Assembly: GCA_024614665.1 (NCBI GenBank)
Contig: GCA_024614665.1_4861.1
DNA: 64,000 nucleotides
Reading direction: 5' to 3' (one strand)
From: a phage
The translations under genes were made by a program, and so were the position numbers. Below are positions 7,159 through 46,293 of this stretch, piece after piece. How positions within the stretch are numbered: the stretch's first letter is position 1; the number at the start of each line of letters is the position of its first letter. The notes under the pieces were generated by a model, which was given only the letters and a program-made list of their open reading frames with translations, was not told the DNA's origin and made no database searches.

Positions 7159-8292
7159 TTATTTACCGACGATGTCGCGGACCATTGCTTTGATTGTGGC
7201 AGCAGTACGTTTCTTTTTCGGCAGCTTGCGGATTTCCGCGTACAGTTTATCCAGGTTCAGAGTTTTCTGTACCTGAGCAACAATCTGCATTTGCTCTTCG
7301 TCGATTTTCACTTCGACGGTCTGCTCCTGCATTTTGCCCAGTTCCTGAATCACACTGGCAACCGACACCGGATAAGCTGTTGATTTTGGACGTTCGATAC
7401 CGAGGGTAACAAAGATTTCGTCGTCAATAAACACATTTTCGATATCAGCCAAGTTTTCCAGAATGATTTCATCGTGGTCTTCATCTTCTGACGCATTCGG
7501 ATATGGACGTTTGTAGGTGTAATCCCACACGTCATAGCCGAGTTTATCTGCGAGTTGTACGAAACCTTCCCAGGTTACTTCGCCGGGGTTGATAGTCTGA
7601 CCACGGAAACCAGGGTTGGCCGTAAAGACTTTCACCCAGTCGATGTTTGCGATGCTGCGACACTCTTCCAGCGGCGCGTAACGATCTCCCACTTCGTCAT
7701 TGTCAGACTCTTCAACATGCTCTGCTTCACAACGCTCGAAAGTAACTGAGTGTGGTTTACCGTCACCGAAGATAACGGAGGCAGAACGCCAGTCTTCGAT
7801 AGTCCACTGGACATGAGTCAAATCAATGTAACAATGCCCAACTTTAACACGACCTCGTGGGGCACTTACTGGTTTAATCAGTTCACCTGGTTCGAAGAAG
7901 AATTCGTCAGAATGTGCAATGGCATACCAGACACCATCAACACCTTCAACGAGAATAGACCAGTTATACGGCGCATGGCAACTTTGGAAAGCTACGCCCA
8001 GCATACTTCCCCAACGGTCATCTGGCGAATATTTCAGCGGCGGTAGGTTATCAAACTGAAGAGTTTGAGAAGAAAGGCACAACTTATTACGCAGGTGCGG
8101 CAGCGGCAGATAAGCCTCCACATTGTTATCGAACAGCGCATTGTAAAGATCCGGGTTGATAACACCGGTGCCAGTGACGTGTTGTGCAATCAGAGCTTCG
8201 GAATATGCACGAAAACCTTCGTAGCTAAGCACATACGCACGGTTACGTACTACACGAGCCATATCTTCGATTACGGAAATTGGAAATTGCAT
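7159..8292 (-). CDS. hypothetical protein (about 377 aa)
   Basis: ORF track 7159..8316 begins with TTG; first ATG (MQFPISV...) at 8292 has AAGGAC upstream. Confidence 0.55.
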   Translation of the reverse strand: MQFPISVIEDMARVVRNRAYVLSYEGFRAYSEALIAQHVTGTGVINPDLYNALFDNNVEAYLPLPHLRNKLCLSSQTLQFDNLPPLKYSPDDRWGSMLGVAFQSCHAPYNWSILVEGVDGVWYAIAHSDEFFFEPGELIKPVSAPRGRVKVGHCYIDLTHVQWTIEDWRSASVIFGDGKPHSVTFERCEAEHVEESDNDEVGDRYAPLEECRSIANIDWVKVFTANPGFRGQTINPGEVTWEGFVQLADKLGYDVWDYTYKRPYPNASEDEDHDEIILENLADIENVFIDDEIFVTLGIERPKSTAYPVSVASVIQELGKMQEQTVEVKIDEEQMQIVAQVQKTLNLDKLYAEIRKLPKKKRTAATIKAMVRDIVGK

Positions 8293-11992: not shown

Positions 11993-12645
11993 GAGCTGAA
12001 TTCCTAAGTGAGCTTTCACCTGCAATGAAAGCGTGTGACGAAGAATTGCGTTTGTGTTTTCTTAAGTTTACCGGTAAAGCTTAGCGGTGTATACCGCCAC
12101 AGATGAAGACCAGTTCTCTATCGGAACTATGTCTTTAATCAGCAACGACGTTTTCAACGTCGTGATGCTGAGGTAACCTTCCGTCGCCACATTCGCTCAT
12201 GGCGCTTCTGATTACCACGCCAGTCTTCCCCGACTGTACGTGAAACTGCAAAATCATCCGGCCCGCAGACTTCCGCGATGTCTGCTAAAAGGTTCTTTGA
12301 AGACCCTATAGCCATCCCCACGCTAGAAAGAACGATACGCCGGGTTGGCTCGGCCGCCCCTAAACCCACGACCACGGGATCAGAGACTGTTTCACTGCTA
12401 CATGTTGTTTCTCCCACTTCGTAATTACCCTCCTGTTAAAACCAACCTTGCGTCAATGCAAGGATTGCGCCTAGGGCGTATGCGCCTGCTCCTAGTATCA
12501 GGCTACAGACGATACACCCAATCCATTTCACTAAAATAGCCACGTTACTACAAACGCTCCGATTGCGCAAACGATAAACGTGATACCAACATCTGTCCAG
12601 GTGGCACCGTCATACGCACCCGTTGCAATCATCGCCGCGTTGACA

Positions 12646-12849
12646 CTATTCACGACTGTCATAAGCCGGGTCCCTTAAACGTGGGGGCTTGCTCCACAGA
12701 TTACCGAAGTAAACCCCTTCTAAGAACACCAAAACAACTAATCCCCAAAAGGCAGGCGTGGCACGAGACAAGAAAATACCCAGCAGCACCGCAGTGTGCA
12801 TTACCACAACTGCCCAAAACTTTAAACGTCGCGGTTTACGTGTTGCCAT
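12646..12849 (-). CDS. small membrane protein
   Basis: MATRKPRRLKFWAVVVMHTAVLLGIFL...; part of a chain of overlapping small hydrophobic ORFs. Confidence 0.3.
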   Translation of the reverse strand: MATRKPRRLKFWAVVVMHTAVLLGIFLSRATPAFWGLVVLVFLEGVYFGNLWSKPPRLRDPAYDSRE

Positions 12850-12936
12850 GGAATGCCCATCCTTTCGTGCGGATAATCCAATCCCAGGCACCACGAATTA
12901 ACCACAGCGCAATACCGGTTAGTACAATACCTTCGA

Positions 12937-13128
12937 TCATGACCGTTCCCCTACATCTCGCCACTCACAACGTGTGTCGAACAGACGTTCTTTAAGAGCA
13001 GCAGCTAAATAAACAACCGCAGCGATAACCACTACGGTTGCACAAAAGGAGAGGTACAGTACCATCACAACAAACTGAAGGAACTGAAAACCCCACCAAG
13101 CCCATAAGCGCCAACCTTTATGATGCAT
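12937..13128 (-). CDS. small membrane protein (63 aa)
   Basis: ATG with GAAGGGG upstream; WRLWAWWGFQFLQFVVMVLYLSFCATVVVIAAVVYLAAAL; overlaps the end of the Rad50-like gene by 11 nt. Confidence 0.35.
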   Translation of the reverse strand: MHHKGWRLWAWWGFQFLQFVVMVLYLSFCATVVVIAAVVYLAAALKERLFDTRCEWRDVGERS

Positions 13129-15628
13129 ATTTGATTATTACCCCTTCGTTATAAACCGGTGGAAGCGTTACACCTTCTGGCTCGACGACACAGTAGGTGG
13201 CTTCGTTAAGTTTAGAATGAACTTCCGCTTCATGCGAAACGACCAGTAATTGAGAAAACTCTCCCGACAACGCCAACGATTTAATGAAGTTAACTAATCG
13301 GTTTTTGTGTTCTTCATCCATGCCTTCAGATGGTTCATCCAATAACAAAGGATAGTTTTGTAAACCAAGCGCTTTATACGCCGTTAAACGAAACATCATG
13401 TTAAAGATAATACGCTGTGCTTTTGAACCTTTCTTCACATCCGGTACCAGTTCTACATGGTCTTTTAATCGCACAGGGAACGTGTAGTCCAGATCCCCGT
13501 CGGTTAGATCGCACGGAATAACCTGCATCGGATATGCCCACACCATTTCGATATACCGATTCATTAAATCCATGATGCGGGTAATCGCAGCGTAGAAGTA
13601 ACGTCTCAGTAAACCTTTTTCAGGAGAAACCGCATTAATAATCAGTCTGGCATGGTGGTGTTCTTTGAGCAACTCAGCTTGCTCTTTTTCCAGTTCCGCT
13701 AAACGTGCAATAGCCCCTTCCATTTGACGAAACCGTTCACGAGCTGAAGTATACGCATCGAGCTTCGCTTCGCGGCGGTTTAACAACTCACGAACTACGA
13801 CGTTGTTAACGGAGATGTTCATTTCCGATACCAGATGTTCGTAGCCCTTTTGGAAACGTTCGATTGCTTCTTTGGTTTGTTGCAGTTGGGTGGTTTCGCG
13901 TTCCAGCTCATTGGCTTGTCTGCGGTATTCTATCAGTCGACGGTTAGCCCCGTCTAGTTGTGAACGGATATGTTCAATTTTCTGGCTCAGAGCACCATCA
14001 ACATTACCTACTGCGGCAACAGCCTCTTGCCATTCCCGTTCCGCTGTTGCAAGCTTCGCTGATTGACGCAGATACATCATGGCCGAATCTAACTCTTCGG
14101 TAAAGGCACGTGCAATGGCACCATATCGATCCCGCGCCGTGGTGAAGATATCCAGCTCCTGTAGTTTACGGAAAAACAAACCGACAACGGGATGATTGGA
14201 ATACGACATGACAATTTCGCGAATCGTACGTAGGCTACGGACGTCCTCTTCAATCTCTTTGCGGTCACGCAAAAGACTATCCATTTCGTCTTTCAGCTGT
14301 TTTTTCCAACCTTCATTATCGTTGATGGCCTTTTCAATTTCAGGTAACGACTTACGAATCCCAGGACGGAAACGGTGGTTACACTGTGGACAATCAACTT
14401 CTGCAGTTTCTAAGAAGTGTTGACGGTCGTGGTATAAACCGTGTAGCACATTCTCACAACGTTGCAACTTTTCAGATAGACCCGCAGAGGTTAAATCCAT
14501 ACCCTGTAAACGCTTCTCTAACGCTCCTAGGCGCTCTGTTGTCTTTAACTGGTCCAGATGCATGGACAACGGTAAATTCCAGTTACAGGCGTCGTTTAAC
14601 GCGTTCTGAATGCTATCCACGTCGATGCGGGTACCTTCAAACAGAGCCGGGAACATCCAGTTCTGTTGGAACGTTGCCAGTTCCTGTTTTAAGCTGTCGA
14701 TTGTTTGTTTTAGACCGGTATGGTTACGCATCAGATACGCTTGACGCGACTCCTCATCCAGTAGCTGTGACAACTCTTTATTGTACATGTTGCATTCAGT
14801 TTCAGCGGAGGCAGCTTGCTCACGCCAGGCAACCACACGACTTTGAAACTCGTTAATCAGTTCGTCAGAAGGCAGAACGCCATAACGTTCCATAATGAGT
14901 TTTACAGCCGGTTGCAACGAAGCAATGCGTTTCCGGATACTGTCAACCGAAACAGCGTTATCTAAACCGGGCCTTGCTTCAATTGTGCGGTTTAATTCTT
15001 GAAGCTCAGCATCGAGTTCTTTCAAACGAACTTCTAAACGTGCACGATCTTCTTCATCGTCAACGACGCGCATTTTTGCTTCGCCGATTTTTCGTCCGGT
15101 GTGTTCGATGGCCCCGCTTAAACTGGAAGCGAGTTTACGCAAACGTCGATAGCAGCCAACAACGTACGTCAGATCAGATTCTGACATTAACGTAAACCAT
15201 TTACGACGAACTTCGGTAGTGGCGTCAGTTAATAAGGTCTCACCATTAATTAACTCTTTGATTTCTTTGGTGATTCCGGTTAATTGCTCCACCATGGAGT
15301 TGTAAACTTTGGCGTTTACCGAGTCCACAATGGGGACGCCTTTGGTGATATTGAAAATACTACAAGACAAAGAAGACCCACGTCGCAGGACTTCAAACTT
15401 AAGACGGTCGTCCCCGACTAACGCGTAGTTAGTGTAAGAACCACCTTCACGGAATTCAGATTTTGCTGGAGCTAAGGGGAGAAAAACAGATAGGAGGCTT
15501 GTTTTACCGCAACCATTCCCACCAAGGATAATGGTAACGGTTGATTTAAGGGTGAAATCAAACGTTTCGATTTCATGTAACCCCATGCCGGTAAATCCTT
15601 TCAAAATGATACGTTCGACCTTGAGCAT
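13118..15628 (-). CDS. Rad50/SbcC-like ATPase with zinc hook
   Basis: Walker A GGNGCGKTS at N-terminus; long coiled-coil middle with CPQC hook; C-terminal LLLDEPSEGMD (Walker B/D-loop) and VVSHE (H-loop); GAAGG RBS. Confidence 0.8.
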   Translation of the reverse strand: MLKVERIILKGFTGMGLHEIETFDFTLKSTVTIILGGNGCGKTSLLSVFLPLAPAKSEFREGGSYTNYALVGDDRLKFEVLRRGSSLSCSIFNITKGVPIVDSVNAKVYNSMVEQLTGITKEIKELINGETLLTDATTEVRRKWFTLMSESDLTYVVGCYRRLRKLASSLSGAIEHTGRKIGEAKMRVVDDEEDRARLEVRLKELDAELQELNRTIEARPGLDNAVSVDSIRKRIASLQPAVKLIMERYGVLPSDELINEFQSRVVAWREQAASAETECNMYNKELSQLLDEESRQAYLMRNHTGLKQTIDSLKQELATFQQNWMFPALFEGTRIDVDSIQNALNDACNWNLPLSMHLDQLKTTERLGALEKRLQGMDLTSAGLSEKLQRCENVLHGLYHDRQHFLETAEVDCPQCNHRFRPGIRKSLPEIEKAINDNEGWKKQLKDEMDSLLRDRKEIEEDVRSLRTIREIVMSYSNHPVVGLFFRKLQELDIFTTARDRYGAIARAFTEELDSAMMYLRQSAKLATAEREWQEAVAAVGNVDGALSQKIEHIRSQLDGANRRLIEYRRQANELERETTQLQQTKEAIERFQKGYEHLVSEMNISVNNVVVRELLNRREAKLDAYTSARERFRQMEGAIARLAELEKEQAELLKEHHHARLIINAVSPEKGLLRRYFYAAITRIMDLMNRYIEMVWAYPMQVIPCDLTDGDLDYTFPVRLKDHVELVPDVKKGSKAQRIIFNMMFRLTAYKALGLQNYPLLLDEPSEGMDEEHKNRLVNFIKSLALSGEFSQLLVVSHEAEVHSKLNEATYCVVEPEGVTLPPVYNEGVIIKYAS

Positions 15629-38996: not shown

Positions 38997-39043
38997 CAGA
39001 TAGCGCTATGGGGCAAGGAAGCCCCAATCAAAGGAGTTTGGCA

Positions 39044-40246
39044 ATGGCCGAAATCATTTATCAGTACCCGCTCGACCTTACCGGGACATTAACGTCGAAC
39101 GCCGTTACGCGGCGTATTACGTTAGGTTCTGGTAAAGTTAACCGGGCTTTTGCATTTCCTGACGGAGCTTTCTACGCGGATACTTTCCGCTTAGCGGCTG
39201 CGAACAAACCGGGTGTCTACCCGTACAAACGTGGTACAGACTACGAGCTGATTTTTGCACATACTGCATATCAGAAAATGACCAAGAACCGCGAAGTGGT
39301 CATGGGTGTGGTGGTAACTAACTCGGCCATTCCTACAGATATCGAAGTCTCTGCGCAAGTCGTTGGTGGTTTTCAGTCTGCGAACGTCGAAGGCATCCGA
39401 CAAGCGATTGCGTCGTTGAAAATTGAAGACCGCGTGGTGGACTTCAAGGATCTTCGGAACGTACCCGATACGTTCCCGTCCGCACCGACGTATAAAGACC
39501 TTGGCGATATCTACGGTTTTGAGTACATCATTACCGTGCTCGCGGGGATTAAAGATGCGATTAACTCCGGCTCTGCAGTACAGCTGGAAGAAATTAAAGG
39601 TATTCTGGACGGTCTGAAAAACGACTTCCTCGATGCCTTAAATACCCACATCAACGCCGAAGGTAACGTACACAATCTCGACATTCATCAGGTTAATGGC
39701 CTGACGGAGACGGAGATTCGTGCTCTGATTCAAAGTGTACAGACTGCCATTGACGCCACTATCAGAGATATCGGCGACTTAAGAGCAGCAGACACGGCGT
39801 TGGGGCAACGCATCGATGCAGTTGTGGCTTCGTTAGCCGCGTGGAACGACCAGCTTAATGTAGTTGCTCAAAATTACCAGAAAATGTCGTTAGCATTAGC
39901 TAACCTTAATTCTCTGGTGTTGCAATTACAGAAGAAGGTTAATGATCTTCAGTCTGCGCTGAATGAAACAAATCAGCGTGTCACGGATCTTGAGAATCAA
40001 GGCAAAGACTTCCAACAGCAAATTGATAACCTGCAAGGACAAATCAACAGTCTTAAAACTCAGGTTGTAAACAACACCAACGCAATTTCGCAGGCAAACC
40101 AGAATCTGGCGAACCATGCGGCTGCGGATAACCCACACCCGAATTACCTCCATAAACAGTATGGCGGTGTTGTGCAGGCTGCTGTTCACGTCAACAACAA
40201 CCTCACCTCGCGCGACGATGTTCAAGCTGAAGCGGGTACTAAGTAA
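39044..40246 (+). CDS. tail fibre-like protein with C-terminal coiled coil (about 400 aa)
   Basis: ORF track 39008..40246; ATG (MAEIIYQ...) with AAGGAG RBS; shared N-terminal module (GTDYELIFAHTAY); heptad-like Q/N/L-rich segment. Confidence 0.7.
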   Translation: MAEIIYQYPLDLTGTLTSNAVTRRITLGSGKVNRAFAFPDGAFYADTFRLAAANKPGVYPYKRGTDYELIFAHTAYQKMTKNREVVMGVVVTNSAIPTDIEVSAQVVGGFQSANVEGIRQAIASLKIEDRVVDFKDLRNVPDTFPSAPTYKDLGDIYGFEYIITVLAGIKDAINSGSAVQLEEIKGILDGLKNDFLDALNTHINAEGNVHNLDIHQVNGLTETEIRALIQSVQTAIDATIRDIGDLRAADTALGQRIDAVVASLAAWNDQLNVVAQNYQKMSLALANLNSLVLQLQKKVNDLQSALNETNQRVTDLENQGKDFQQQIDNLQGQINSLKTQVVNNTNAISQANQNLANHAAADNPHPNYLHKQYGGVVQAAVHVNNNLTSRDDVQAEAGTK

Positions 40247-40253
40247 CTTGTTT

Positions 40254-40300
40254 ACGAGCCGGACTATGTTTATGGACATAGTCCGCTCGTTCTACTTTTT
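40254..40300 (+). terminator. intrinsic terminator between tail fibre module and Cys-rich peptide genes
   Basis: long imperfect hairpin ACGAGCCGGACTATG...CATAGTCCGCTCGT followed by TCTACTTTTT. Confidence 0.6.
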
Positions 40301-40311
40301 AAGGAAGCGTA

Positions 40312-40704
40312 ATGGCGATATCTATTAAAGACGTCAGAAACCGCGTCCAGATAGTCGAAGCTAACATGGCGACAGGCCCCCGTATCGACGCGCAAGTGGC
40401 CTCTAAAGCCCATAACGCGGCAGACCGATTTGGGGGTTGGACGAAAACACAGCTAGATTGCGGCGGGACATGTTCTTGGACGTGCTCTAACGGTTGCTCG
40501 CATGGCTGTTCGAGCTGTTCAGGAAGCTGTTCTGCTTCTTGTATCGGTAGCTGTTCTTCGACGTGTGGCGGTAACTGTTCTGGTTGCTCTGGTTGTTCTG
40601 GTGGTTGCAGTAGTAGCTGTACCGGTAACTGCACAGGTGGTTGCGGTGGCTCTTGTTCCGCAAACTGCTCCGGGGCCTGCTCCGGCGGCTGTTCAGGTCG
40701 CTAA
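40312..40704 (+). CDS. Cys-rich repeat peptide 1 (130 aa), candidate radical-SAM substrate
   Basis: AAGGAAG RBS; about 50-aa leader-like N-terminus then core with Cys every 4th residue (CSNGCSHGCSSCSGSCSASC...). Confidence 0.7.
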   Translation: MAISIKDVRNRVQIVEANMATGPRIDAQVASKAHNAADRFGGWTKTQLDCGGTCSWTCSNGCSHGCSSCSGSCSASCIGSCSSTCGGNCSGCSGCSGGCSSSCTGNCTGGCGGSCSANCSGACSGGCSGR

Positions 40705-41110
40705 GGGGGATTAAATGGCAATTGGATTAAAAGAACTGAATAACCGATTAAACACGATCGATGCAAACGCTCTAAAGAATACCACGAATGTGCAAAACTA
40801 CATTCGCAATAAAGCTACGAATAACGCCGACTTGTTCGCAGGTCAAGGCCGTTCGCACTATGACTGTGGTGGCACATGCTCTTTTAGTTGCTCGAGTTGT
40901 TCTGGCGGATGTACTGGGTCTGCGACAGGTGGTTGTGGGTCGACTTGTTCGGCAAACTGTGTATCAGGCTGTAGCAGCAGCTGCACGGGCTGTAGCTCTT
41001 CGTGCTCTGGTGGTTGTAGCGGCACGTGCACAGGCAGCTGTTCTGGGGGTTGTGGTAAATCCTGCTCCGCAAACTGCTCAGGTGCGTGCTCTGGTGGTTG
41101 TTCAGGTCCT
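40480..41110 (+). repeat. periodic Cys-codon region encoding the cores of Cys-rich peptides 1 and 2
   Basis: 12-nt (4-codon) periodicity of TGT/TGC; Ser and Gly codons vary synonymously between repeats, so periodicity is at protein level. Confidence 0.6.
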
Positions 41111-41119
41111 AACTCCTAA
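40715..41119 (+). CDS. Cys-rich repeat peptide 2 (134 aa), paralog of peptide 1
   Basis: AAGGGGGA RBS; conserved leader and DCGGTCS core entry; same C-terminal CSANCSGACSGGCSG ending as peptide 1. Confidence 0.7.
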   Translation: MAIGLKELNNRLNTIDANALKNTTNVQNYIRNKATNNADLFAGQGRSHYDCGGTCSFSCSSCSGGCTGSATGGCGSTCSANCVSGCSSSCTGCSSSCSGGCSGTCTGSCSGGCGKSCSANCSGACSGGCSGPNS

Positions 41120-41134
41120 CTGACGGAGGCTTAT

Positions 41135-41341
41135 GTGATCAGTCTCAAGACTATTCGAAACCGTCTCGTTACGGCAGAAGGCTACATTACAACCGCGCAG
41201 GCAAACAACTATATCGCTAACCAGGGCACCGTGTCAACCACGAACAACCTGGCTGGTTTACCGCTTTCTCACTATAACTGTAATGGTGGGTGTAGCTGGT
41301 CCTGCAGCGGAAGCTGTAGCCGTGGAGCGGGGAATCGATAA
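41135..41341 (+). CDS. Cys-rich repeat peptide 3 (68 aa, short paralog)
   Basis: GTG start with GACGGAGG RBS; leader related to peptides 1 and 2; short core NCNGGCSWSCSGSCS. Confidence 0.55.
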   Translation: MISLKTIRNRLVTAEGYITTAQANNYIANQGTVSTTNNLAGLPLSHYNCNGGCSWSCSGSCSRGAGNR

Positions 41342-41363
41342 CAGAAAACGTTCGGAGTATTAA

Positions 41364-42251
41364 ATGAAAAACGATTTGCATCTTGCGTATAAAACCACAT
41401 TCAACCACCCGCTGCATCTATCTTCCCCAGATTCGGTGCGTGCACACCTCGCTGACAAAGTCAGACTGATTGCACAGATTCCTGGTGAGTGGCCAAAGGT
41501 TCGTGGTCGCTTCTTGACCGACAAGAAGAACTACACCGTAGAAAATACGTTTAAGATCCGTGATATGGTTGCAGAGGCCATCGTTATCTTTAACGGCGAT
41601 GGTAACTCTCGCGGCGTGTTGGTTGACGGTAAGTATTTCTTCAGTGAAGGGATTCTGAACAACAGTGTCGATTTAGAACTGATGTTTACACCGTTTGACG
41701 AACTCGAAGCAAAACCGATGGCGCGCCGTTGGTGGAGTCCGGACTATCTGGGCTCGTTCCCTTACTACTTTGTACTGGTACCTGCCGATACGGAAACGTA
41801 TTTCGACACCGAACCGTACATCGATATCGAGGGATATAAAGAACTCGGCATCACCCGTTTAGCGGACATGATGGCGTATAGCTATAAGTTCGTGTGGGAT
41901 AAAAAGCGTTCTGTCTGGTATGCGCTGACTGACGATTTTGAAATCACCAAACGTATTCGTAAGCCGTGGATGCAACACCTGGTTCAAACCCGATATGGGG
42001 ATTACCCGGCGACAGAAGCGGATTTGAGTAAGCTGGTAAGCTTCCTCTTAACGAAGGTGGATTTAACGAAAGAAGAAGCAGAAGCTGTTTCTGAGATTCG
42101 TAGTCGTTCGGTTACGTTGGCCGATTTGAAACGCTTGAACGAAAGACATGCCGACCTGAACAAAATTTTAGCTGCCTATCACGACCCGATGTTACTGGTG
42201 CCTGGCGCTAATGTAGACGAAGATCCTTTATTCGCCATTGATTATATTTAA
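41364..42251 (+). CDS. hypothetical protein (295 aa) within the radical-SAM cluster
   Basis: ORF track; co-directional, tightly packed between precursors and radical-SAM genes. Confidence 0.6.
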   Translation: MKNDLHLAYKTTFNHPLHLSSPDSVRAHLADKVRLIAQIPGEWPKVRGRFLTDKKNYTVENTFKIRDMVAEAIVIFNGDGNSRGVLVDGKYFFSEGILNNSVDLELMFTPFDELEAKPMARRWWSPDYLGSFPYYFVLVPADTETYFDTEPYIDIEGYKELGITRLADMMAYSYKFVWDKKRSVWYALTDDFEITKRIRKPWMQHLVQTRYGDYPATEADLSKLVSFLLTKVDLTKEEAEAVSEIRSRSVTLADLKRLNERHADLNKILAAYHDPMLLVPGANVDEDPLFAIDYI

Positions 42252-42273
42252 AAATATACTGGAGCAACCTGCA

Positions 42274-43188
42274 ATGACAGATCAAGTAGAATCCAGGATC
42301 TCGTCTGAACTGTACGACAAACCGTCAATTCTGTCGGTTGTCGCAACTTCTAAGTGTAACTTAGACTGTAGCTTCTGTGGAGGGGCTTATTACATGGATA
42401 GAGAAGATACTTCTCGTGAGTTTCAACGTGAAGAGATTCTCTCGATTTTAGAGAAGAATCCGGATATCGGTGAAATTCATTGGACGGGCGGTGAGCCGCT
42501 GTTAGCGCAGCGCAAGATTGAAGACTTCGTGAACGAGTTGAAGGAGTCTCATCCGAACCTCCGTCATCACATGTACACCAACGGTTTAAAGATGCGTAAA
42601 TCACATCTGCCGTTGCTGAAACAGTTCGACCTTATCTTTGTGTCCATTGACGGCTACAAGAAGTCGGAACGTCCGTTTATGAACTTTGTAAACGGTGGTA
42701 ATCACGAAGCGCTGGAAGTGCTGTACGAGCTGGACAACTATTACACCTGGGGTGTGATGACGCGTGACCAGTTAGGTGATAAACGCTGGTACGAAGATTT
42801 CATCGAGCTGCACCGAGCAATCTATCATTACCGTCCAGGTGGTATGTCGTTGCTGTTTGATGCGATGATGCCGAAACCGTTATCGCCAGACCACGTCATG
42901 AACTTCATGTACGGGTATTGGAAAATACTCGACAATATCGAACGCCTTAACATGCAGAACGATTCTGAGTGTGGGCTTGCGATCAGTAAAATGTTCGATA
43001 CTGAGTGCAACACGTGCAGTGAAGTGCTGTGGCTTAACGCCGACGGTACGCAGGAGCAAATTCAGAACGCCCCAGAGATATTGGAAGTCGGCTGTAATCG
43101 CCTGGCGCGTTCTATCGGCGTTGATGCGTATAACTACATCAACCGTGTAATTTCTGCTAAGCGTAAACGGGCGGCGAACAATGAGTAA
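42274..43188 (+). CDS. radical SAM enzyme (about 304 aa)
   Basis: CNLDCSFC (CxxxCxxC) near N-terminus; GGEPLL; C-terminal Cys cluster (ECGLA...ECNTCSE...GCN); ATG with CTGGAG RBS (ORF track starts 42238). Confidence 0.75.
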   Translation: MTDQVESRISSELYDKPSILSVVATSKCNLDCSFCGGAYYMDREDTSREFQREEILSILEKNPDIGEIHWTGGEPLLAQRKIEDFVNELKESHPNLRHHMYTNGLKMRKSHLPLLKQFDLIFVSIDGYKKSERPFMNFVNGGNHEALEVLYELDNYYTWGVMTRDQLGDKRWYEDFIELHRAIYHYRPGGMSLLFDAMMPKPLSPDHVMNFMYGYWKILDNIERLNMQNDSECGLAISKMFDTECNTCSEVLWLNADGTQEQIQNAPEILEVGCNRLARSIGVDAYNYINRVISAKRKRAANNE

Positions 43189-44509
43189 CAGCGAACAGCA
43201 AATCCAGTACACACCACGCACGTATCAGGTTGTGACTAACCTGTCATGTAATCTGGACTGCGAATACTGCTACGAGCGTAAATATCCTCGTAACAACAAA
43301 GTAGCAGACGTGATTGATTTTATCCACGCTTGTTTCGAGCGTGATAAAGATATCCCGAACGTTGAGGTCATCATCGATATCATCGGTGGTGAGCCGTTCA
43401 TGCAGCCTAAACTTCTTTTGGCGGCCTTTGAAACCGCAGAGAAGTTATGCGCAGAACACAATCGCCCGTATATGTTCAGTATCTCCACGAACGGTACACT
43501 TCTGGACCGTCCGCTGAACAAAGAAATTATCGAGCGCTGGAAAGACAAACTGTCTATTGGGGTCTCCATCGATGGTTTACCTGAAGTCCATGACAAATAT
43601 CGTATCTTTACCACGACGCGTGAAGGGTCGTACGAAGCTGCGGTACGCGGTTACAATTATCTGAAGAGTGTTGGCATCGCTGAATTAGGCGTAAAGGCGA
43701 CGTTTACGATCGATACATTGCCGCACTATGCCGCCAGCATGAAATCGTTAATTGACATGTCCGGCGGTGGTACCATTTCTGGTAACGTAACGTACGAAGA
43801 TATCCTGCCGCGCCATATGGCGTTGGATATCGCGAACCAGATGATGGACGTGATGGACTACTGGATTGAGAAGGGTCTGCACACCAACCCGCGTAACACG
43901 ATTACACACATCATCCCGGATGGCCTGAACTTTATGGCAACTTGGGACCCGGATTGGCGTGACAAACTCTTACATGACGACTCTGTTCGTCTCGACCCAG
44001 AACGCCTGAAACCGTACTGCGGTACGTTGACGCACATGACCTGTCTCGGCTTTGATCGCAAGATTTACGGTTGTAACCGTTTCATGTCCACGGTAACTTC
44101 CCGTTCTGCTGTAGCAGAACTGGTCGGTCGTGAGTTTGTGAGCCTGGACGGTGGTAAGTTGTTAGAAGAGATTCAAACACAGTACACCAACTACCCAGAA
44201 ACCTGTTTAGGGTGTCCGATGAAACACAGTTGCGGTAGCTGCGCAGCAGCATCGTACGAAAACGGTGAAGGTACACTGGAAGACCGTAAAGCGTATCACG
44301 CCGAGCGTCGTCAGTGTGGTTGGACTACTGCGAAGCTGATGGCGGCGGAATATTGGTATCAGAAAACTGGTACGACCCGCGCATCAGATTTGCATGATAA
44401 ATCCATGTGCTATTGTTCACGTTGTGTACGCCAACGTGCTGAAGCAGAAAAATTACAAAACGGAGCCCAGAATGAAGTCAATACTGATTCACAATTTTAC
44501 GAAGCGTAA
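43181..44509 (+). CDS. radical SAM enzyme with SPASM-like C-terminal domain (442 aa)
   Basis: CNLDCEYC (CxxxCxxC); IGGEPF; C-terminal CLGCPMKHSCGSC resembling the SPASM auxiliary-cluster motif; start overlaps stop of preceding radical-SAM gene by 8 nt. Confidence 0.8.
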   Translation: MSNSEQQIQYTPRTYQVVTNLSCNLDCEYCYERKYPRNNKVADVIDFIHACFERDKDIPNVEVIIDIIGGEPFMQPKLLLAAFETAEKLCAEHNRPYMFSISTNGTLLDRPLNKEIIERWKDKLSIGVSIDGLPEVHDKYRIFTTTREGSYEAAVRGYNYLKSVGIAELGVKATFTIDTLPHYAASMKSLIDMSGGGTISGNVTYEDILPRHMALDIANQMMDVMDYWIEKGLHTNPRNTITHIIPDGLNFMATWDPDWRDKLLHDDSVRLDPERLKPYCGTLTHMTCLGFDRKIYGCNRFMSTVTSRSAVAELVGREFVSLDGGKLLEEIQTQYTNYPETCLGCPMKHSCGSCAAASYENGEGTLEDRKAYHAERRQCGWTTAKLMAAEYWYQKTGTTRASDLHDKSMCYCSRCVRQRAEAEKLQNGAQNEVNTDSQFYEA

Positions 44510-45038
44510 ACTGCACTTGGTCGATCGCTTCCTGCGCAAAAGCAAGCTGTACAATGTGCACGCAATTGTGGCAGGGGAAGACTTCACTGATGAAATCCAA
44601 AGCCTGTTGATTAAATACGGGCTGAATGTGATGATCCCGGTCTACTGCGTTGAGAAAGGACACGAGTCTGTCGCGGAAATCGAAAAGCGCAACCCCGGCT
44701 TTGAGAAGCGACTGCTTGCATACCCACGCCACAAAATCGAACTGCTACGTCACTCTATTGATGAAGCCAGTCCTGAAAGTTTAGTGGCTTTGGGCTTGTC
44801 TTTCCCGCGGATGCGTATTCGTAACTTACGCTCCAATAACCCGGTTGACGCTTATTACACAGAGCGTCAAATCTTCGAAGAACACCTGCTCCCGCAGTTG
44901 GAAGAAGAAGAGCAACACAACATTTCTCTGTTGTGGGCCGGTAACCTCGATCAGGACTTCCAGATGCTGGACTTCGGTTTGTTGTTAGAACTTGGCCTGA
45001 TTGAGGAGGACGAATGTCTGTTACTGACAAAAGCTTAA
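44472..45038 (+). CDS. hypothetical protein (about 188 aa)
   Basis: ORF track 44394..45038; ATG (MKSILIH...) with ACGGAG RBS; overlaps 3' end of SPASM gene. Confidence 0.5.
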   Translation: MKSILIHNFTKRKLHLVDRFLRKSKLYNVHAIVAGEDFTDEIQSLLIKYGLNVMIPVYCVEKGHESVAEIEKRNPGFEKRLLAYPRHKIELLRHSIDEASPESLVALGLSFPRMRIRNLRSNNPVDAYYTERQIFEEHLLPQLEEEEQHNISLLWAGNLDQDFQMLDFGLLLELGLIEEDECLLLTKA

Positions 45039-45685
45039 CGAACGAAGAGATCCGCGCCCGTTATTTCCAGCGTGATTTGCCGATTGATCGTCACGGTAAT
45101 TTCATGGAACGAATCGGTGCGCAGGATCAGGGCCGTACAGGCTTTTGCGCTCTGCTCCATTATCATCTCATCGAAGGGATGTCTGATAAAGAAGCCCTGG
45201 CACGCATGAAGCTGTATGAGATGTCGGAGATTGAAGCTAACTTCACATTGAAACGCACGAAAGAGTTTATTGCTAATGTGCTGGAGATTGACCTCGACGA
45301 AATTCGCGGGAATCTGAAATCTACCGCACGTTACATTTACGAAGACGTGCAGAAGATGCTGTTGGAGCTTGACCACCGCTACGAAGATGAGCGTCATGGT
45401 TATATCGAGTTTGAAGGTAGTCACTTTCAAGCCGATGAATCGTCGCGTACCATCCTCGGTCAATACATTCAGGCAGATACCGCACCAGAATACTGGCTCG
45501 ATACGCTGAATACTAAGCACAGTCCGTTTACAGTAGCCCAATGTAAAGCGTTGCTGGCCGCTATTGTTGCACGTGACCAAGTGTTGCACTCAGCAATGGC
45601 AGATAACAAACGCCATATCCGTGAGTTAGCTGAAAAGCGCGATTACACTGGATTAAAAACATTGTCCGAATCTCTCGGCATTTAA
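45014..45685 (+). CDS. hypothetical protein (223 aa)
   Basis: GAGGAGG RBS; followed by bidirectional terminator. Confidence 0.6.
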   Translation: MSVTDKSLTNEEIRARYFQRDLPIDRHGNFMERIGAQDQGRTGFCALLHYHLIEGMSDKEALARMKLYEMSEIEANFTLKRTKEFIANVLEIDLDEIRGNLKSTARYIYEDVQKMLLELDHRYEDERHGYIEFEGSHFQADESSRTILGQYIQADTAPEYWLDTLNTKHSPFTVAQCKALLAAIVARDQVLHSAMADNKRHIRELAEKRDYTGLKTLSESLGI

Positions 45686-45687
45686 GC

Positions 45688-45745
45688 AAAGAAAATAAAG
45701 GCCCTACCTCCCTTCGGGGAGGTAGGTACCTTATTTTATTTCTTA
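45688..45745. terminator. bidirectional intrinsic terminator closing the radical-SAM cluster
   Basis: A-rich run, hairpin CCTACCTCCC-TTCG-GGGAGGTAGG, T-rich run; between convergent genes ending 45685 and 45766. Confidence 0.7.
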
Positions 45746-45765
45746 GAAACTACTAAGTTGTTTTG

Positions 45766-46293
45766 TTAAACGAATCCGTCCAGTTCACCGTTGGTGGTGC
45801 TCAGGTCAGTTTTAACGATTGGCTGCGTTACAGTATAAACTGCAGGGCTGCCAGGTCGGTATTTAATGTGGCCTGATTTCACCTTAACAGTGATGACTTT
45901 CTCACCACTGCTGCCGTCCACGCGTTTAATGATGAGTTCAGACAATGCAAACGCATCTTCCGTTTTACCGGCGGCAATTAGATCTGCGTTGACAAAAGCA
46001 AGCACTTCTTCATCGGTATCCCATTCTGCCTGGTCAGCGGTAACTGCCTTCTCACCGATGATGTCCGATAAATTGAGGCGGGTATAATGCAGCTCTTTCA
46101 CGCCAGTAAAGTTAGCGGATTCCGCGGTGGCGGTGATGGTGAGATTGGTGTTGCGAGTGTCTCCAGAATCTGCTGGTGAATAGTCAGCAACAGCGCCGAA
46201 TGTAACGTCAGCAGCAGTTAACGGACTAGGCAGTCCGCTGTTTGCAGCATTAAACAGCGCGACGAGTTGGTCTTTTGCAGAGATGACTGCCAT
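45766..46293 (-). CDS. short family-A paralog (175 aa)
   Basis: AAGGAAA RBS; LHYTRLNLSDI motif and C-terminal TNGELDGFV shared with long family-A proteins. Confidence 0.6.
   Translation of the reverse strand: MAVISAKDQLVALFNAANSGLPSPLTAADVTFGAVADYSPADSGDTRNTNLTITATAESANFTGVKELHYTRLNLSDIIGEKAVTADQAEWDTDEEVLAFVNADLIAAGKTEDAFALSELIIKRVDGSSGEKVITVKVKSGHIKYRPGSPAVYTVTQPIVKTDLSTTNGELDGFV

Follow-up and report, generated by a model that had tools for sequence, protein, structure and literature searches.

The pairing of a Cys-X-X-X run with an adjoining radical SAM/SPASM enzyme is already known as a named, bioinformatically defined family, namely the CXXX-repeat system of NCBIfam (TIGR04114, TIGR04115, and TIGR04117; PF27846, tSAM_targ_Cxxx_rpt), within which TIGR04115 is designated "radical SAM peptide maturase, CXXX-repeat target family". 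In the literature searched, only the bioinformatic definition of this family was found, and its chemistry is not described. PapB (freyrasin) and CteB are SPASM radical SAM enzymes joining the sulfur of a Cys to a carbon of a nearby residue. For both enzymes, this sulfur-to-carbon linkage was described within repeated Cys motifs (PMC12373016). QhpD, likewise a SPASM radical SAM enzyme, installs several Cys thioethers in QhpC, a protein subunit that is retained.

In this study, a jumbo phage locus was analyzed in which three tandem genes (referred to as A, B, and C) featuring Cys-X-X-X cores are followed by genes for an accessory protein and two radical SAM enzymes. On balance, the evidence favors the interpretation that A, B, and C represent enzyme-cross-linked tail-fibre modules and not released peptides, with both the chemistry and the presence in the virion being inferred. 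In the full-text literature searched, no paper on phage CXXX proteins or on radical SAM-modified fibres was found.

Genomic Location and Layout of the Cys-X-X-X Genes

The analyzed DNA stretch of 64,000 nucleotides (contig GCA_024614665.1_4861.1, hereafter the window) belongs to an SPN3US-like jumbo phage. Over positions 39000-43200, it shares 98-99% identity with the SPN3US-like jumbo phages that infect Salmonella and E. coli (genus Seoulvirus), and approximately 81% with the phages STsAS and SPAsTU. Upstream of A, B, and C, the plus-strand gene at 39008..40246 encodes the fibre-like virion protein gp167 (SPN3US gp167, annotated as 'virion structural protein 20'), the C-terminal half of which is a coiled-coil with matches to coiled-coil type Pfam and NCBIfam entries. 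Mass spectrometry detected this protein in SPN3US virions (PMC5694885 supplement), and gp167-170 together with gp160 were listed among the 86 virion proteins of this phage (PMC5694885). Furthermore, gp170, gp169, and gp168 were described as baseplate/tail-fibre candidates missing from a tailless mutant (PMC5694885, PMC5105663). The upstream neighbours of A, B, and C are gp170-gp168 and gp167, and the three genes are located right after this group and before an annotated tail assembly chaperone, that is, in a tail/baseplate module.

In the tables supplementing the virion proteomics study (PMC5694885), the products gp161-166 were not found, which fits assembly enzymes. A, B, and C are unannotated in the SPN3US records, and it is inferred that the published proteomics data are therefore uninformative about these three proteins. 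Between gp167 and gene A, a strong RNA hairpin with a trailing U-rich tract was found on the plus strand (40254..40290). Folding of the region 40244-40311 resulted in -24.1 kcal/mol (z = -4.5), and none of 200 shuffled sequences folded as well. The hairpin, as predicted by the folding model, is possibly terminator-like or mRNA-stabilising; a simple terminator scan did not flag it.

The region 40480-41110, for which the first-pass annotation had described Cys-rich cores, falls within the two tandem genes A and B. Gene A (40312..40704, plus strand) is preceded by the Shine-Dalgarno sequence AAGGAAG and encodes a protein of 130 aa composed of an N-terminal part (40312-40458) and a CXXX core (40459-40701) containing 21 Cys. 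Gene B (40715..41119, plus strand), preceded by AGGGGGA, encodes 134 aa and is organized in the same manner, with the N-terminal part extending from 40715 to 40864 and the core, containing 20 Cys, from 40865 to 41116. Both proteins matched phrog_6085 end to end (E about 1e-40; 9e-40 for A and 3e-41 for B). Gene C (41135..41341, plus strand) starts with GTG, encodes only 68 aa, and enters its core at 41279, with only 4 Cys following. It possesses a paralogous N-terminal part and the junction motif described below; its leader is paralogous to that of B (E 2e-4), and the gene is annotated in most relatives.

Each of the three proteins consists of a Cys-free N-terminal part of approximately 50 residues (an example of a leader-region peptide being VQIVEANMATGPR), followed by the Cys-X-X-X core. 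The transition from the end of this "leader" into the core is represented by the junction motif N-x-x-x-L-x-G-Q-x4-Y-x-C-x-G-x-C-S-W-[ST]-C. Good Shine-Dalgarno sequences precede all three genes and are conserved together with the start codons, and the gaps between the genes and to the next gene amount to only 10-22 nt. Cys accounts for 21 of 81 core residues in A and 20 of 84 in B (approximately 25%), as compared to 0.87% across the long ORFs of the window. Apart from a single Lys in B, the cores of A and B are devoid of internal Lys or Arg. A Pfam search of A, B, and C, metal-binding families included, returned no match. The AF2 model of B, computed from a shallow alignment, reached a pLDDT of 40 with the core modelled as disorder and was uninformative.

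An additional observation concerns the C-terminal tails of A and B. The last approximately 16 residues of both proteins are identical in the window (16/16), and in six of eight genomes the two tails agree in 14-16 of 16 positions within the same genome, as compared to a mean identity of 8.2/16 between orthologous tails of different genera. Within the identical stretches, half or more of the codons differ synonymously (8/16), by which recent A-B gene conversion was ruled out. The pattern suggests that the tails either underwent gene conversion long ago or co-evolved with a partner common to both.

The Four-Residue Period Is Maintained at the Protein Level

It had been proposed at first inspection that the four-residue period of the cores is selected on the protein and is not a product of recent replication slippage. 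This proposal held, as four independent tests (codon shuffling, comparison with orthologs, comparison with close relatives, and Cys counts) agreed in showing that protein-level selection preserves the period. Its description required two corrections. The period is dominant and not perfect: a spacing of four was counted for 17 of 20 Cys intervals in A and 16 of 19 in B (33/39), whereas the remaining intervals are of three residues, apart from one of eight, so that several three-residue units interrupt the run. Moreover, the reported alternation of TGT and TGC was only partly confirmed, because the two codons are mixed (12 TGT and 9 TGC in A, 12 and 8 in B, 24:17 in total) without strictly alternating, the core of gene A even including a run of seven TGT among its Cys codons. 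The reported diversity of synonymous Ser, Gly, and Thr codons was confirmed, with all six Ser and all four Gly codons in use and Thr usage corresponding to the phage background. Overall, the codon usage of the cores is indistinguishable from that of the rest of the phage, as deduced from a chi-square comparison of codon proportions with the phage's own usage (p = 0.96 for Cys, 0.10 for Ser, 0.25 for Gly, and 0.17 for Thr).

At the DNA level, tandem repeat detection (TRF) yielded only short arrays with 76-93% matches, and a repeat-family search revealed 60-80% identity among the units; internal exact repeats reach at most 10 nt for A and 17 nt for B. Near-identical nucleotide units, which would have spoken for recent slippage, were thus not observed. 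For codon shuffling, synonymous codons were permuted among the positions encoding the same amino acid. In the resulting codon-level self-alignment, the fraction of identical codons between units was 0.382 as compared to 0.391 after permutation in A, and 0.376 as compared to 0.369 in B. Adjacent units likewise shared codons no more than expected by chance (P = 0.57 for A and 0.31 for B).

Since pairwise dS was saturated for most between-species pairs, counts and close-genome comparisons were used instead. Between the window and STsAS, 44 synonymous and 4 non-synonymous differences were counted for the core of A, and 49.5 and 10.5, respectively, for that of B, the differences being distributed over codon positions 1/2/3 as 3/1/45 (A) and 4/4/48 (B). 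TGT and TGC were switched at 9 of 21 Cys codons in A and 8 of 20 in B, and every Cys was retained. Among eight close Seoulvirus genomes, the cores comprised 26 codon columns with synonymous changes only and 3 with replacements, and no indels of repeat units were found. Hence, slippage judged by the combination of near-identical units and copy-number polymorphism is not supported for A and B in these genomes. In eight genomes representing five genera, the Cys count is invariably 21 for A and ranges between 20 and 23 for B. These comparisons establish the coding frame of the cores, the purifying selection acting on it, and the fixed Cys number of A.

Spurious Reading Frames and Annotation Errors

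Four long ORFs had initially been regarded as spurious by-products of the core composition, and this assessment held: all four exist, namely 40299..40634 and 40884-41072 on the minus strand and 40502-40714 and 40788..41123 on the plus strand. Two further ones were detected on the minus strand (40487-40663 and 40858-41031). Owing to the composition, frames +2 and -2 are free of stops in all eight genomes. Amino acid identity, however, ranged between 0.37 and 0.44 for frame +2 and between 0.81 and 0.90 for frame -2, as compared to 0.95-0.98 for the Cys frame; for the frame of 40788..41123 in particular, the values were 0.37 versus 0.95. The high identity of frame -2 is inferred to reflect wobble positions that it has in common with the sense frame. 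On this basis, and with the sense frame being better conserved, dual coding in frame -2 was considered and rejected.

The +2-frame ORF at 40788..41123 corresponds to SPN3US_0166 / ACQ60_gp100 (gp166), which is annotated in the SPN3US reference, whereas A, B, and C are omitted there. In several records of Erwinia and Cronobacter phages, among them Huxley, Phobos, CR5, and pEa29, minus-strand ORFs are annotated at the position of A, B, and C, and in other Seoulvirus records the corresponding 1.1 kb are left unannotated. Phage EC001 features a correct annotation of the region, including gene A. The annotation error is thus systematic. Of the deposited genomes inspected, most either lack the real genes or carry ORFs in the wrong frame or on the wrong strand in their place. 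A protein database of 5.8 billion clusters likewise does not include the exact A protein, and a search there gave only 16 weak matches.

Accessory Protein and Radical SAM Enzymes of the Cassette

Downstream of gene C, the plus strand encodes a conserved accessory protein of 295 aa (SPN3US gp165, 41364..42251), which matched phrog_8030 with an E value of 7e-151. It was modelled by AF2 with a pLDDT of 88.6; no Pfam match was obtained, and a structure search with the model revealed no recognisable relative. The following plus-strand gene (gp164, 42274..43188) encodes a radical SAM enzyme of approximately 300 aa (rSAM2; PF04055, E 1e-15). Its ORF opens at TTG 42238, and the start given here, ATG 42274, is the one annotated in EC001.

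A second enzyme of 442 aa (gp163, hereafter rSAM1) is encoded on the plus strand at 43181..44509 and was recognized by NCBIfam and structure matches. Its best NCBIfam matches are TIGR04115 with 125.6 bits (cutoff 350) and PapB with 113.6 bits (cutoff 340). As these scores are far below the cutoffs, they do not allow a confident assignment of the chemistry of the named families to rSAM1. Among solved structures, CteB (5WGG, E 3e-10) is the closest, with the match covering the radical SAM core only. In 20 homologs, the CX3CX2C cluster motif (C23/C27/C30) and a C-terminal pattern of seven Cys (C280, C298, C342, C345, C351, C354, and C379) are invariant or nearly so. Inferred from the sequence alone, rSAM1 meets the SPASM-type pattern, i.e., CX3CX2C in combination with a C-terminal 7-Cys auxiliary-cluster pattern; in a Pfam scan, the protein matched PF04055 and PF13353 alone, without any SPASM-domain family. 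Its cluster motif starts at residue 23, which leaves no room for an N-terminal RRE, and no PqqD-like or RRE match was found by Pfam and NCBIfam in any protein of the cassette. Searches against the same two collections detected no protease or transporter family within 39008-46293.

Two further co-oriented genes, gp162 and gp161, follow on the plus strand (44394..45685), gp161 matching DUF4376 (E 9e-9). Their order is kept in Erwinia and Cronobacter phages and not in the distant loci L011-L013, and their membership in the cassette is no more than possible. The gene block is closed by a bidirectional terminator-like hairpin (45703..45726; 10-bp stem, 7 GC pairs) with a T-run on both strands.

Cassette Conservation and Fusion to Tail Fibres

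To the extent analyzed, the block consisting of fibre gene, A/B/C, 295-aa protein, rSAM2, and rSAM1 is kept in the genera Seoulvirus, Machinavirus, Erskinevirus, Derbicusvirus, and Wellingtonvirus. Distant relatives of rSAM1 (30-47% identity) are also located in tail modules. In a Deferribacter prophage (L011), a GpJ-like tail protein is followed by a 302-aa fibre-like protein ending in 28 repeat-region Cys, and subsequently by homologs of the 295-aa protein and both radical SAM enzymes. The cassette of L012 adjoins Peptidase_S74 fibres and includes homologs of the 295-aa protein and rSAM2, the gp164 homologs being detected with E values of 1e-14 (L011) and 2e-34 (L012). On a 213-kb phage contig (L013), two radical SAM enzymes adjoin a fibre-like protein of 568 aa whose C-terminus is formed by a CXXX domain. 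Conservation of the four-part cassette was thereby shown to span from enterobacterial jumbo phages to the Deferribacter prophage.

Co-occurrence of the Cys-X-X-X run with the enzyme was likewise demonstrated, as 82 of 84 loci encoding a relative of rSAM1 also contain a run at a distance of at most 8 kb, usually directly upstream and on the same strand. The upstream neighbours of the surveyed loci mostly represent tail-fibre, tail, or baseplate families, and in one case (L027) the cassette lies 3' of baseplate hub and wedge genes. Giant CXXX proteins accompanied by a radical SAM enzyme were also identified amid housekeeping genes of two bacterial genomes, assigned to Margulisiibacteriota/Termititenax (L095 and L096). 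These pairs reside outside a phage context, indicating that the module is not intrinsically a fibre part, and the generalization that all CXXX/radical SAM systems are phage-tail systems is ruled out by them.

Fusion of the module to tail fibres was shown for other phages. The CXXX proteins of three loci (L019, L022, and L023) combine N-terminal matches to PHROG tail-fibre families (E 2e-40 to 2e-9) with a C-terminal phrog_6085 region. In an alignment, the junction motif is shared by A, B, C, these fused proteins, and the CXXX proteins of the distant cassettes, including L011, L012, and L013, and it is also present in the fibre-like proteins P0186, P0187, P0191, P0203, and P0221. When 1.84 billion representative proteins were searched with a profile, 427 relatives were recovered, many of them featuring classic tail-fibre N-terminal repeats. 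A and B themselves match only phrog_6085 among the PHROGs, and the tail-fibre matches originate from the N-terminal parts of the fused homologs; A, B, and C are without a fibre shaft of their own. Attachment of their leaders to gp167 via shared sequence was considered and discarded, since the best match, obtained for the A leader, was not significant (E 0.068).

Proposed Function and Alternative Explanations

In the proposed model, A, B, and C are real late genes of the SPN3US-like phage, and each would represent a stand-alone copy of the module that forms the C-terminal end of tail-fibre proteins in other phages. This module comprises a short helical neck, the conserved junction motif, and approximately 20 Cys-X-X-X units of small residues. 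The Cys run may serve as the substrate of the SPASM-type enzyme, the second radical SAM enzyme, and the 295-aa accessory protein, which are predicted to convert the cysteines to intramolecular thioether cross-links, by analogy with CteB, PapB, and QhpD. The resulting product would sit on the phage fibres as a knob or rod, compact and insensitive to redox conditions. The parts of this model are not equally well supported. That the radical SAM enzymes act on A, B, and C is likely, as inferred from strong co-occurrence. The assignment of the products to the virion or its fibres, as opposed to released peptides, is inferred from the fusions and the gene position, and we give this a modest preference. 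Thioether formation rests on analogy only, with the acceptor residue unidentified, and might equally well prove right or wrong. The odd and invariant number of 21 Cys in A argues against simple intrachain disulfide pairing.

Among the alternatives, a classical RiPP system survives best, and is nevertheless considered unlikely. According to this explanation, the leaders of approximately 50 aa guide the radical SAM modification and are then removed, and lysis sets free the Cys-rich cores, which act as a natural product with an antimicrobial, signalling, or metal-binding role. It is supported by the leader and core layout of three tandem precursors adjoining radical SAM/SPASM enzymes, by the nearest named families (TIGR04115, PapB, and CteB) being RiPP maturases, by the predicted disorder of the core, which resembles RiPP precursors, and by some cellular homologous pairs outside phage contexts. 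However, other phages with homologous enzymes carry junction and core in one polypeptide with tail-fibre domains of 200-570 aa, the location within the tail-fibre block is conserved, and Pfam and NCBIfam searches of the cassette returned neither a peptidase nor an exporter or RRE domain. Typical RiPP cores are far smaller than 80 aa, and the 80-aa cores with a fixed number of 21 Cys far exceed this size.

Alternatively, the CXXX run might form an unmodified Cys-rich domain folding around metal ions or disulfides, similar to metallothioneins or Cys ladders, with the radical SAM enzymes acting elsewhere. Metal-thiolate proteins resemble cores of approximately 25% Cys and small residues, and the modification chemistry is undemonstrated, both of which speak for this option. 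It is nonetheless regarded as very unlikely, because the run lies beside an rSAM1 relative in nearly all loci of very different phages, the whole four-part cassette is conserved as far as the Deferribacter prophage, the 21 Cys of A cannot all pair within one chain, and no Pfam metal-binding family matched.

Finally, the possibility that the cores are an artefact, namely a young slippage array or non-coding low-complexity DNA with gp166 (40788-41123) as the real gene, is all but excluded, since the reference annotation of that frame and the openness of frames +2 and -2 in all eight genomes are outweighed by the concentration of Cys-frame differences at third positions (3/1/45 and 4/4/48), the amino acid identity of 0.95-0.98 versus 0.37-0.44, the conserved Shine-Dalgarno sequences and start codons, and DNA repeats of only 60-80% identity without unit indels among close genomes.

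If the tail-fibre interpretation is correct, it would join two unconnected fields, i.e., radical SAM peptide chemistry and phage tail-fibre structure, and would provide the uncharacterised "CXXX-repeat target" radical SAM family with a concrete model that can be approached genetically, both amber-mutant genetics and proteomics of the virion being already available for SPN3US. It would also represent a new route to a small fibre domain resistant to redox conditions and proteases, and, for a group of phages applied to combat Salmonella, E. coli, and Erwinia, would extend the host-range candidates by three unannotated genes. A bolder reading, on which we remain undecided, is that of a hitherto unnoticed type of tail-fibre end domain built by radical SAM enzymes, in which a ladder of approximately 20 enzyme-installed cross-links within the Cys-X-X-X repeat would mean that RiPP-type chemistry matures a virion structural protein instead of yielding a secreted peptide. 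Under this bolder reading, the module would be widespread in phages (427 representative proteins) and largely invisible, because gene callers choose the wrong frame.

Comparison with Known Systems

As in the CXXX-repeat system, the Cys-X-X-X run of A, B, and C adjoins a radical SAM/SPASM enzyme whose gene is located near its proposed target, on the same strand and within 2.1 kb. TIGR04114 is the sole NCBIfam match of A and B, and TIGR04115 is the top NCBIfam match of rSAM1. In contrast to the members of this system, A, B, and C reached only 18.5, 17.1, and 13.7 bits, which is below the TIGR04114 cutoff of 20, and rSAM1 did not attain the 350 bits passed by two control proteins (L024 with 387 and L064 with 455 bits). 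These full-scoring TIGR04115 members also adjoin CXXX proteins on viral contigs. Unlike the described system, the clade of A, B, and C adds a second radical SAM enzyme and the 295-aa protein, the fold of which is unknown, and its junction reads Y-x-C-x-G-x-C-S-W, as compared to G-C-x-x-x-C-[ST]-G-L-C in distant members. The PHROG families concerned, phrog_6085 and phrog_8030, are both labelled 'unknown function', so that the family is named and nothing is explained.

The similarity to ranthipeptide / SCIFF maturases is represented by PapB as the second-best family match and CteB as the nearest solved structure. Differences from PapB and CteB include the score of rSAM1 below the family cutoff and the absence of an N-terminal RRE; with respect to the putative substrates, an Asp/Glu acceptor pattern is missing, and these are proteins of 130 aa or fibre domains instead of short peptides. 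In addition, the region 39008-46293 differs from a classical RiPP cluster in lacking a leader peptidase or exporter family.

Apparently new are, accordingly, a clade that fails the curated cutoffs and possesses a second enzyme and a new accessory protein, the tail-fibre context of this clade, and the annotation problem, none of which was described in the full-text literature searched. With the QhpD family model TIGR03906, rSAM1 and its relatives score 55-107 bits. QhpC is a different protein from A, B, and C, receives few cross-links, and has no repeat architecture, but as the gamma subunit of quinohemoprotein amine dehydrogenase it offers, together with QhpD, a precedent for a modified subunit within a larger assembly.

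Annotation and database representation of the A/B/C region

The three tandem plus-strand genes A (40312-40704), B (40715-41119) and C (41135-41341), each encoding an N-terminal part of about 50 aa followed by a core of Cys-X-X-X (CXXX) units, are missing from the annotation of the SPN3US reference genome, in which gp166 (SPN3US_0166/ACQ60_gp100) is a wrong-frame ORF on the plus strand (window 40788-41123; 7786-8121 in the compared locus L001). Wrong-strand or wrong-frame ORFs were likewise annotated in this region in the phages Huxley, Phobos, CR5, Kwan, and pEa29, and in MET_P1_082_240, SPLA3, and SPLA1a, the 1.1 kb of the region carry no annotated gene at all. A homology search of a collection of 5.8 billion protein clusters recovered no identical or full-length near-identical protein for protein A; only 16 matches were obtained in total, most of them being fragments or frameshifted calls, indicating that the family is under-sampled by gene callers.

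The antisense frame -2 over the cores (window 40459-41116) was found to be open in nearly all genomes examined, the exception being one stop in the A core of Kwan, and its amino-acid identity between species within the cores ranged between 0.81 and 0.90. This conservation, which is most probably attributable to wobble positions held in common with the sense frame, can mislead gene finders relying on conservation.

Paralog C and the C-terminal tails of A and B

Paralog C (also at L008 2949-3164, L009 2960-3169, and L010 2963-3172) still has its N-terminal part, as well as the junction motif Y-x-C-x-G-x-C-S-W, but encodes only four Cys residues in the window, two in Phobos and CR5, and three in Kwan, one of the latter being located upstream in the N-terminal part. 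Either C is a minimal member of the family, or it is degenerating.

A and B end in the same 16 residues (SCSANCSGACSGGCSG; window 40652-40699 and 41061-41108), encoded with synonymous differences in 8 of the 16 codons. In other genera, the tail is again common to A and B, but unlike that of the window, a pattern that resembles lineage-specific co-variation between the paralog tails.

Hairpins upstream of gene A and between gp161 and gp160

Between the gp167 fibre gene and gene A, a strong hairpin (window 40254-40290; -24 kcal/mol, z = -4.5) is followed by a U-rich tract, and may act as a partial terminator or mRNA stabiliser. A GC-rich hairpin with a perfect 10-bp stem and T-runs on both strands (window 45703-45726) is placed between the convergent genes gp161 and gp160; it has the appearance of a bidirectional terminator.

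Distant CXXX loci

Giant CXXX proteins of 662-667 aa with 107-122 Cys residues in the repeat region were observed in Margulisiibacteriota/Termititenax genomes (L095 3886-5874 and L096 5399-7402), where both loci are surrounded by genes for housekeeping functions or flagellar export and not by those of phages. Another giant CXXX representative protein, P0179, comprises 1679 aa. On the gut-phage contig L027, a reverse transcriptase gene (12604-13881; phrog_1423) lies about 3.6 kb downstream of a CXXX protein/radical SAM enzyme pair and adjoins a tail-protein-like gene; it is perhaps part of a diversity-generating retroelement.
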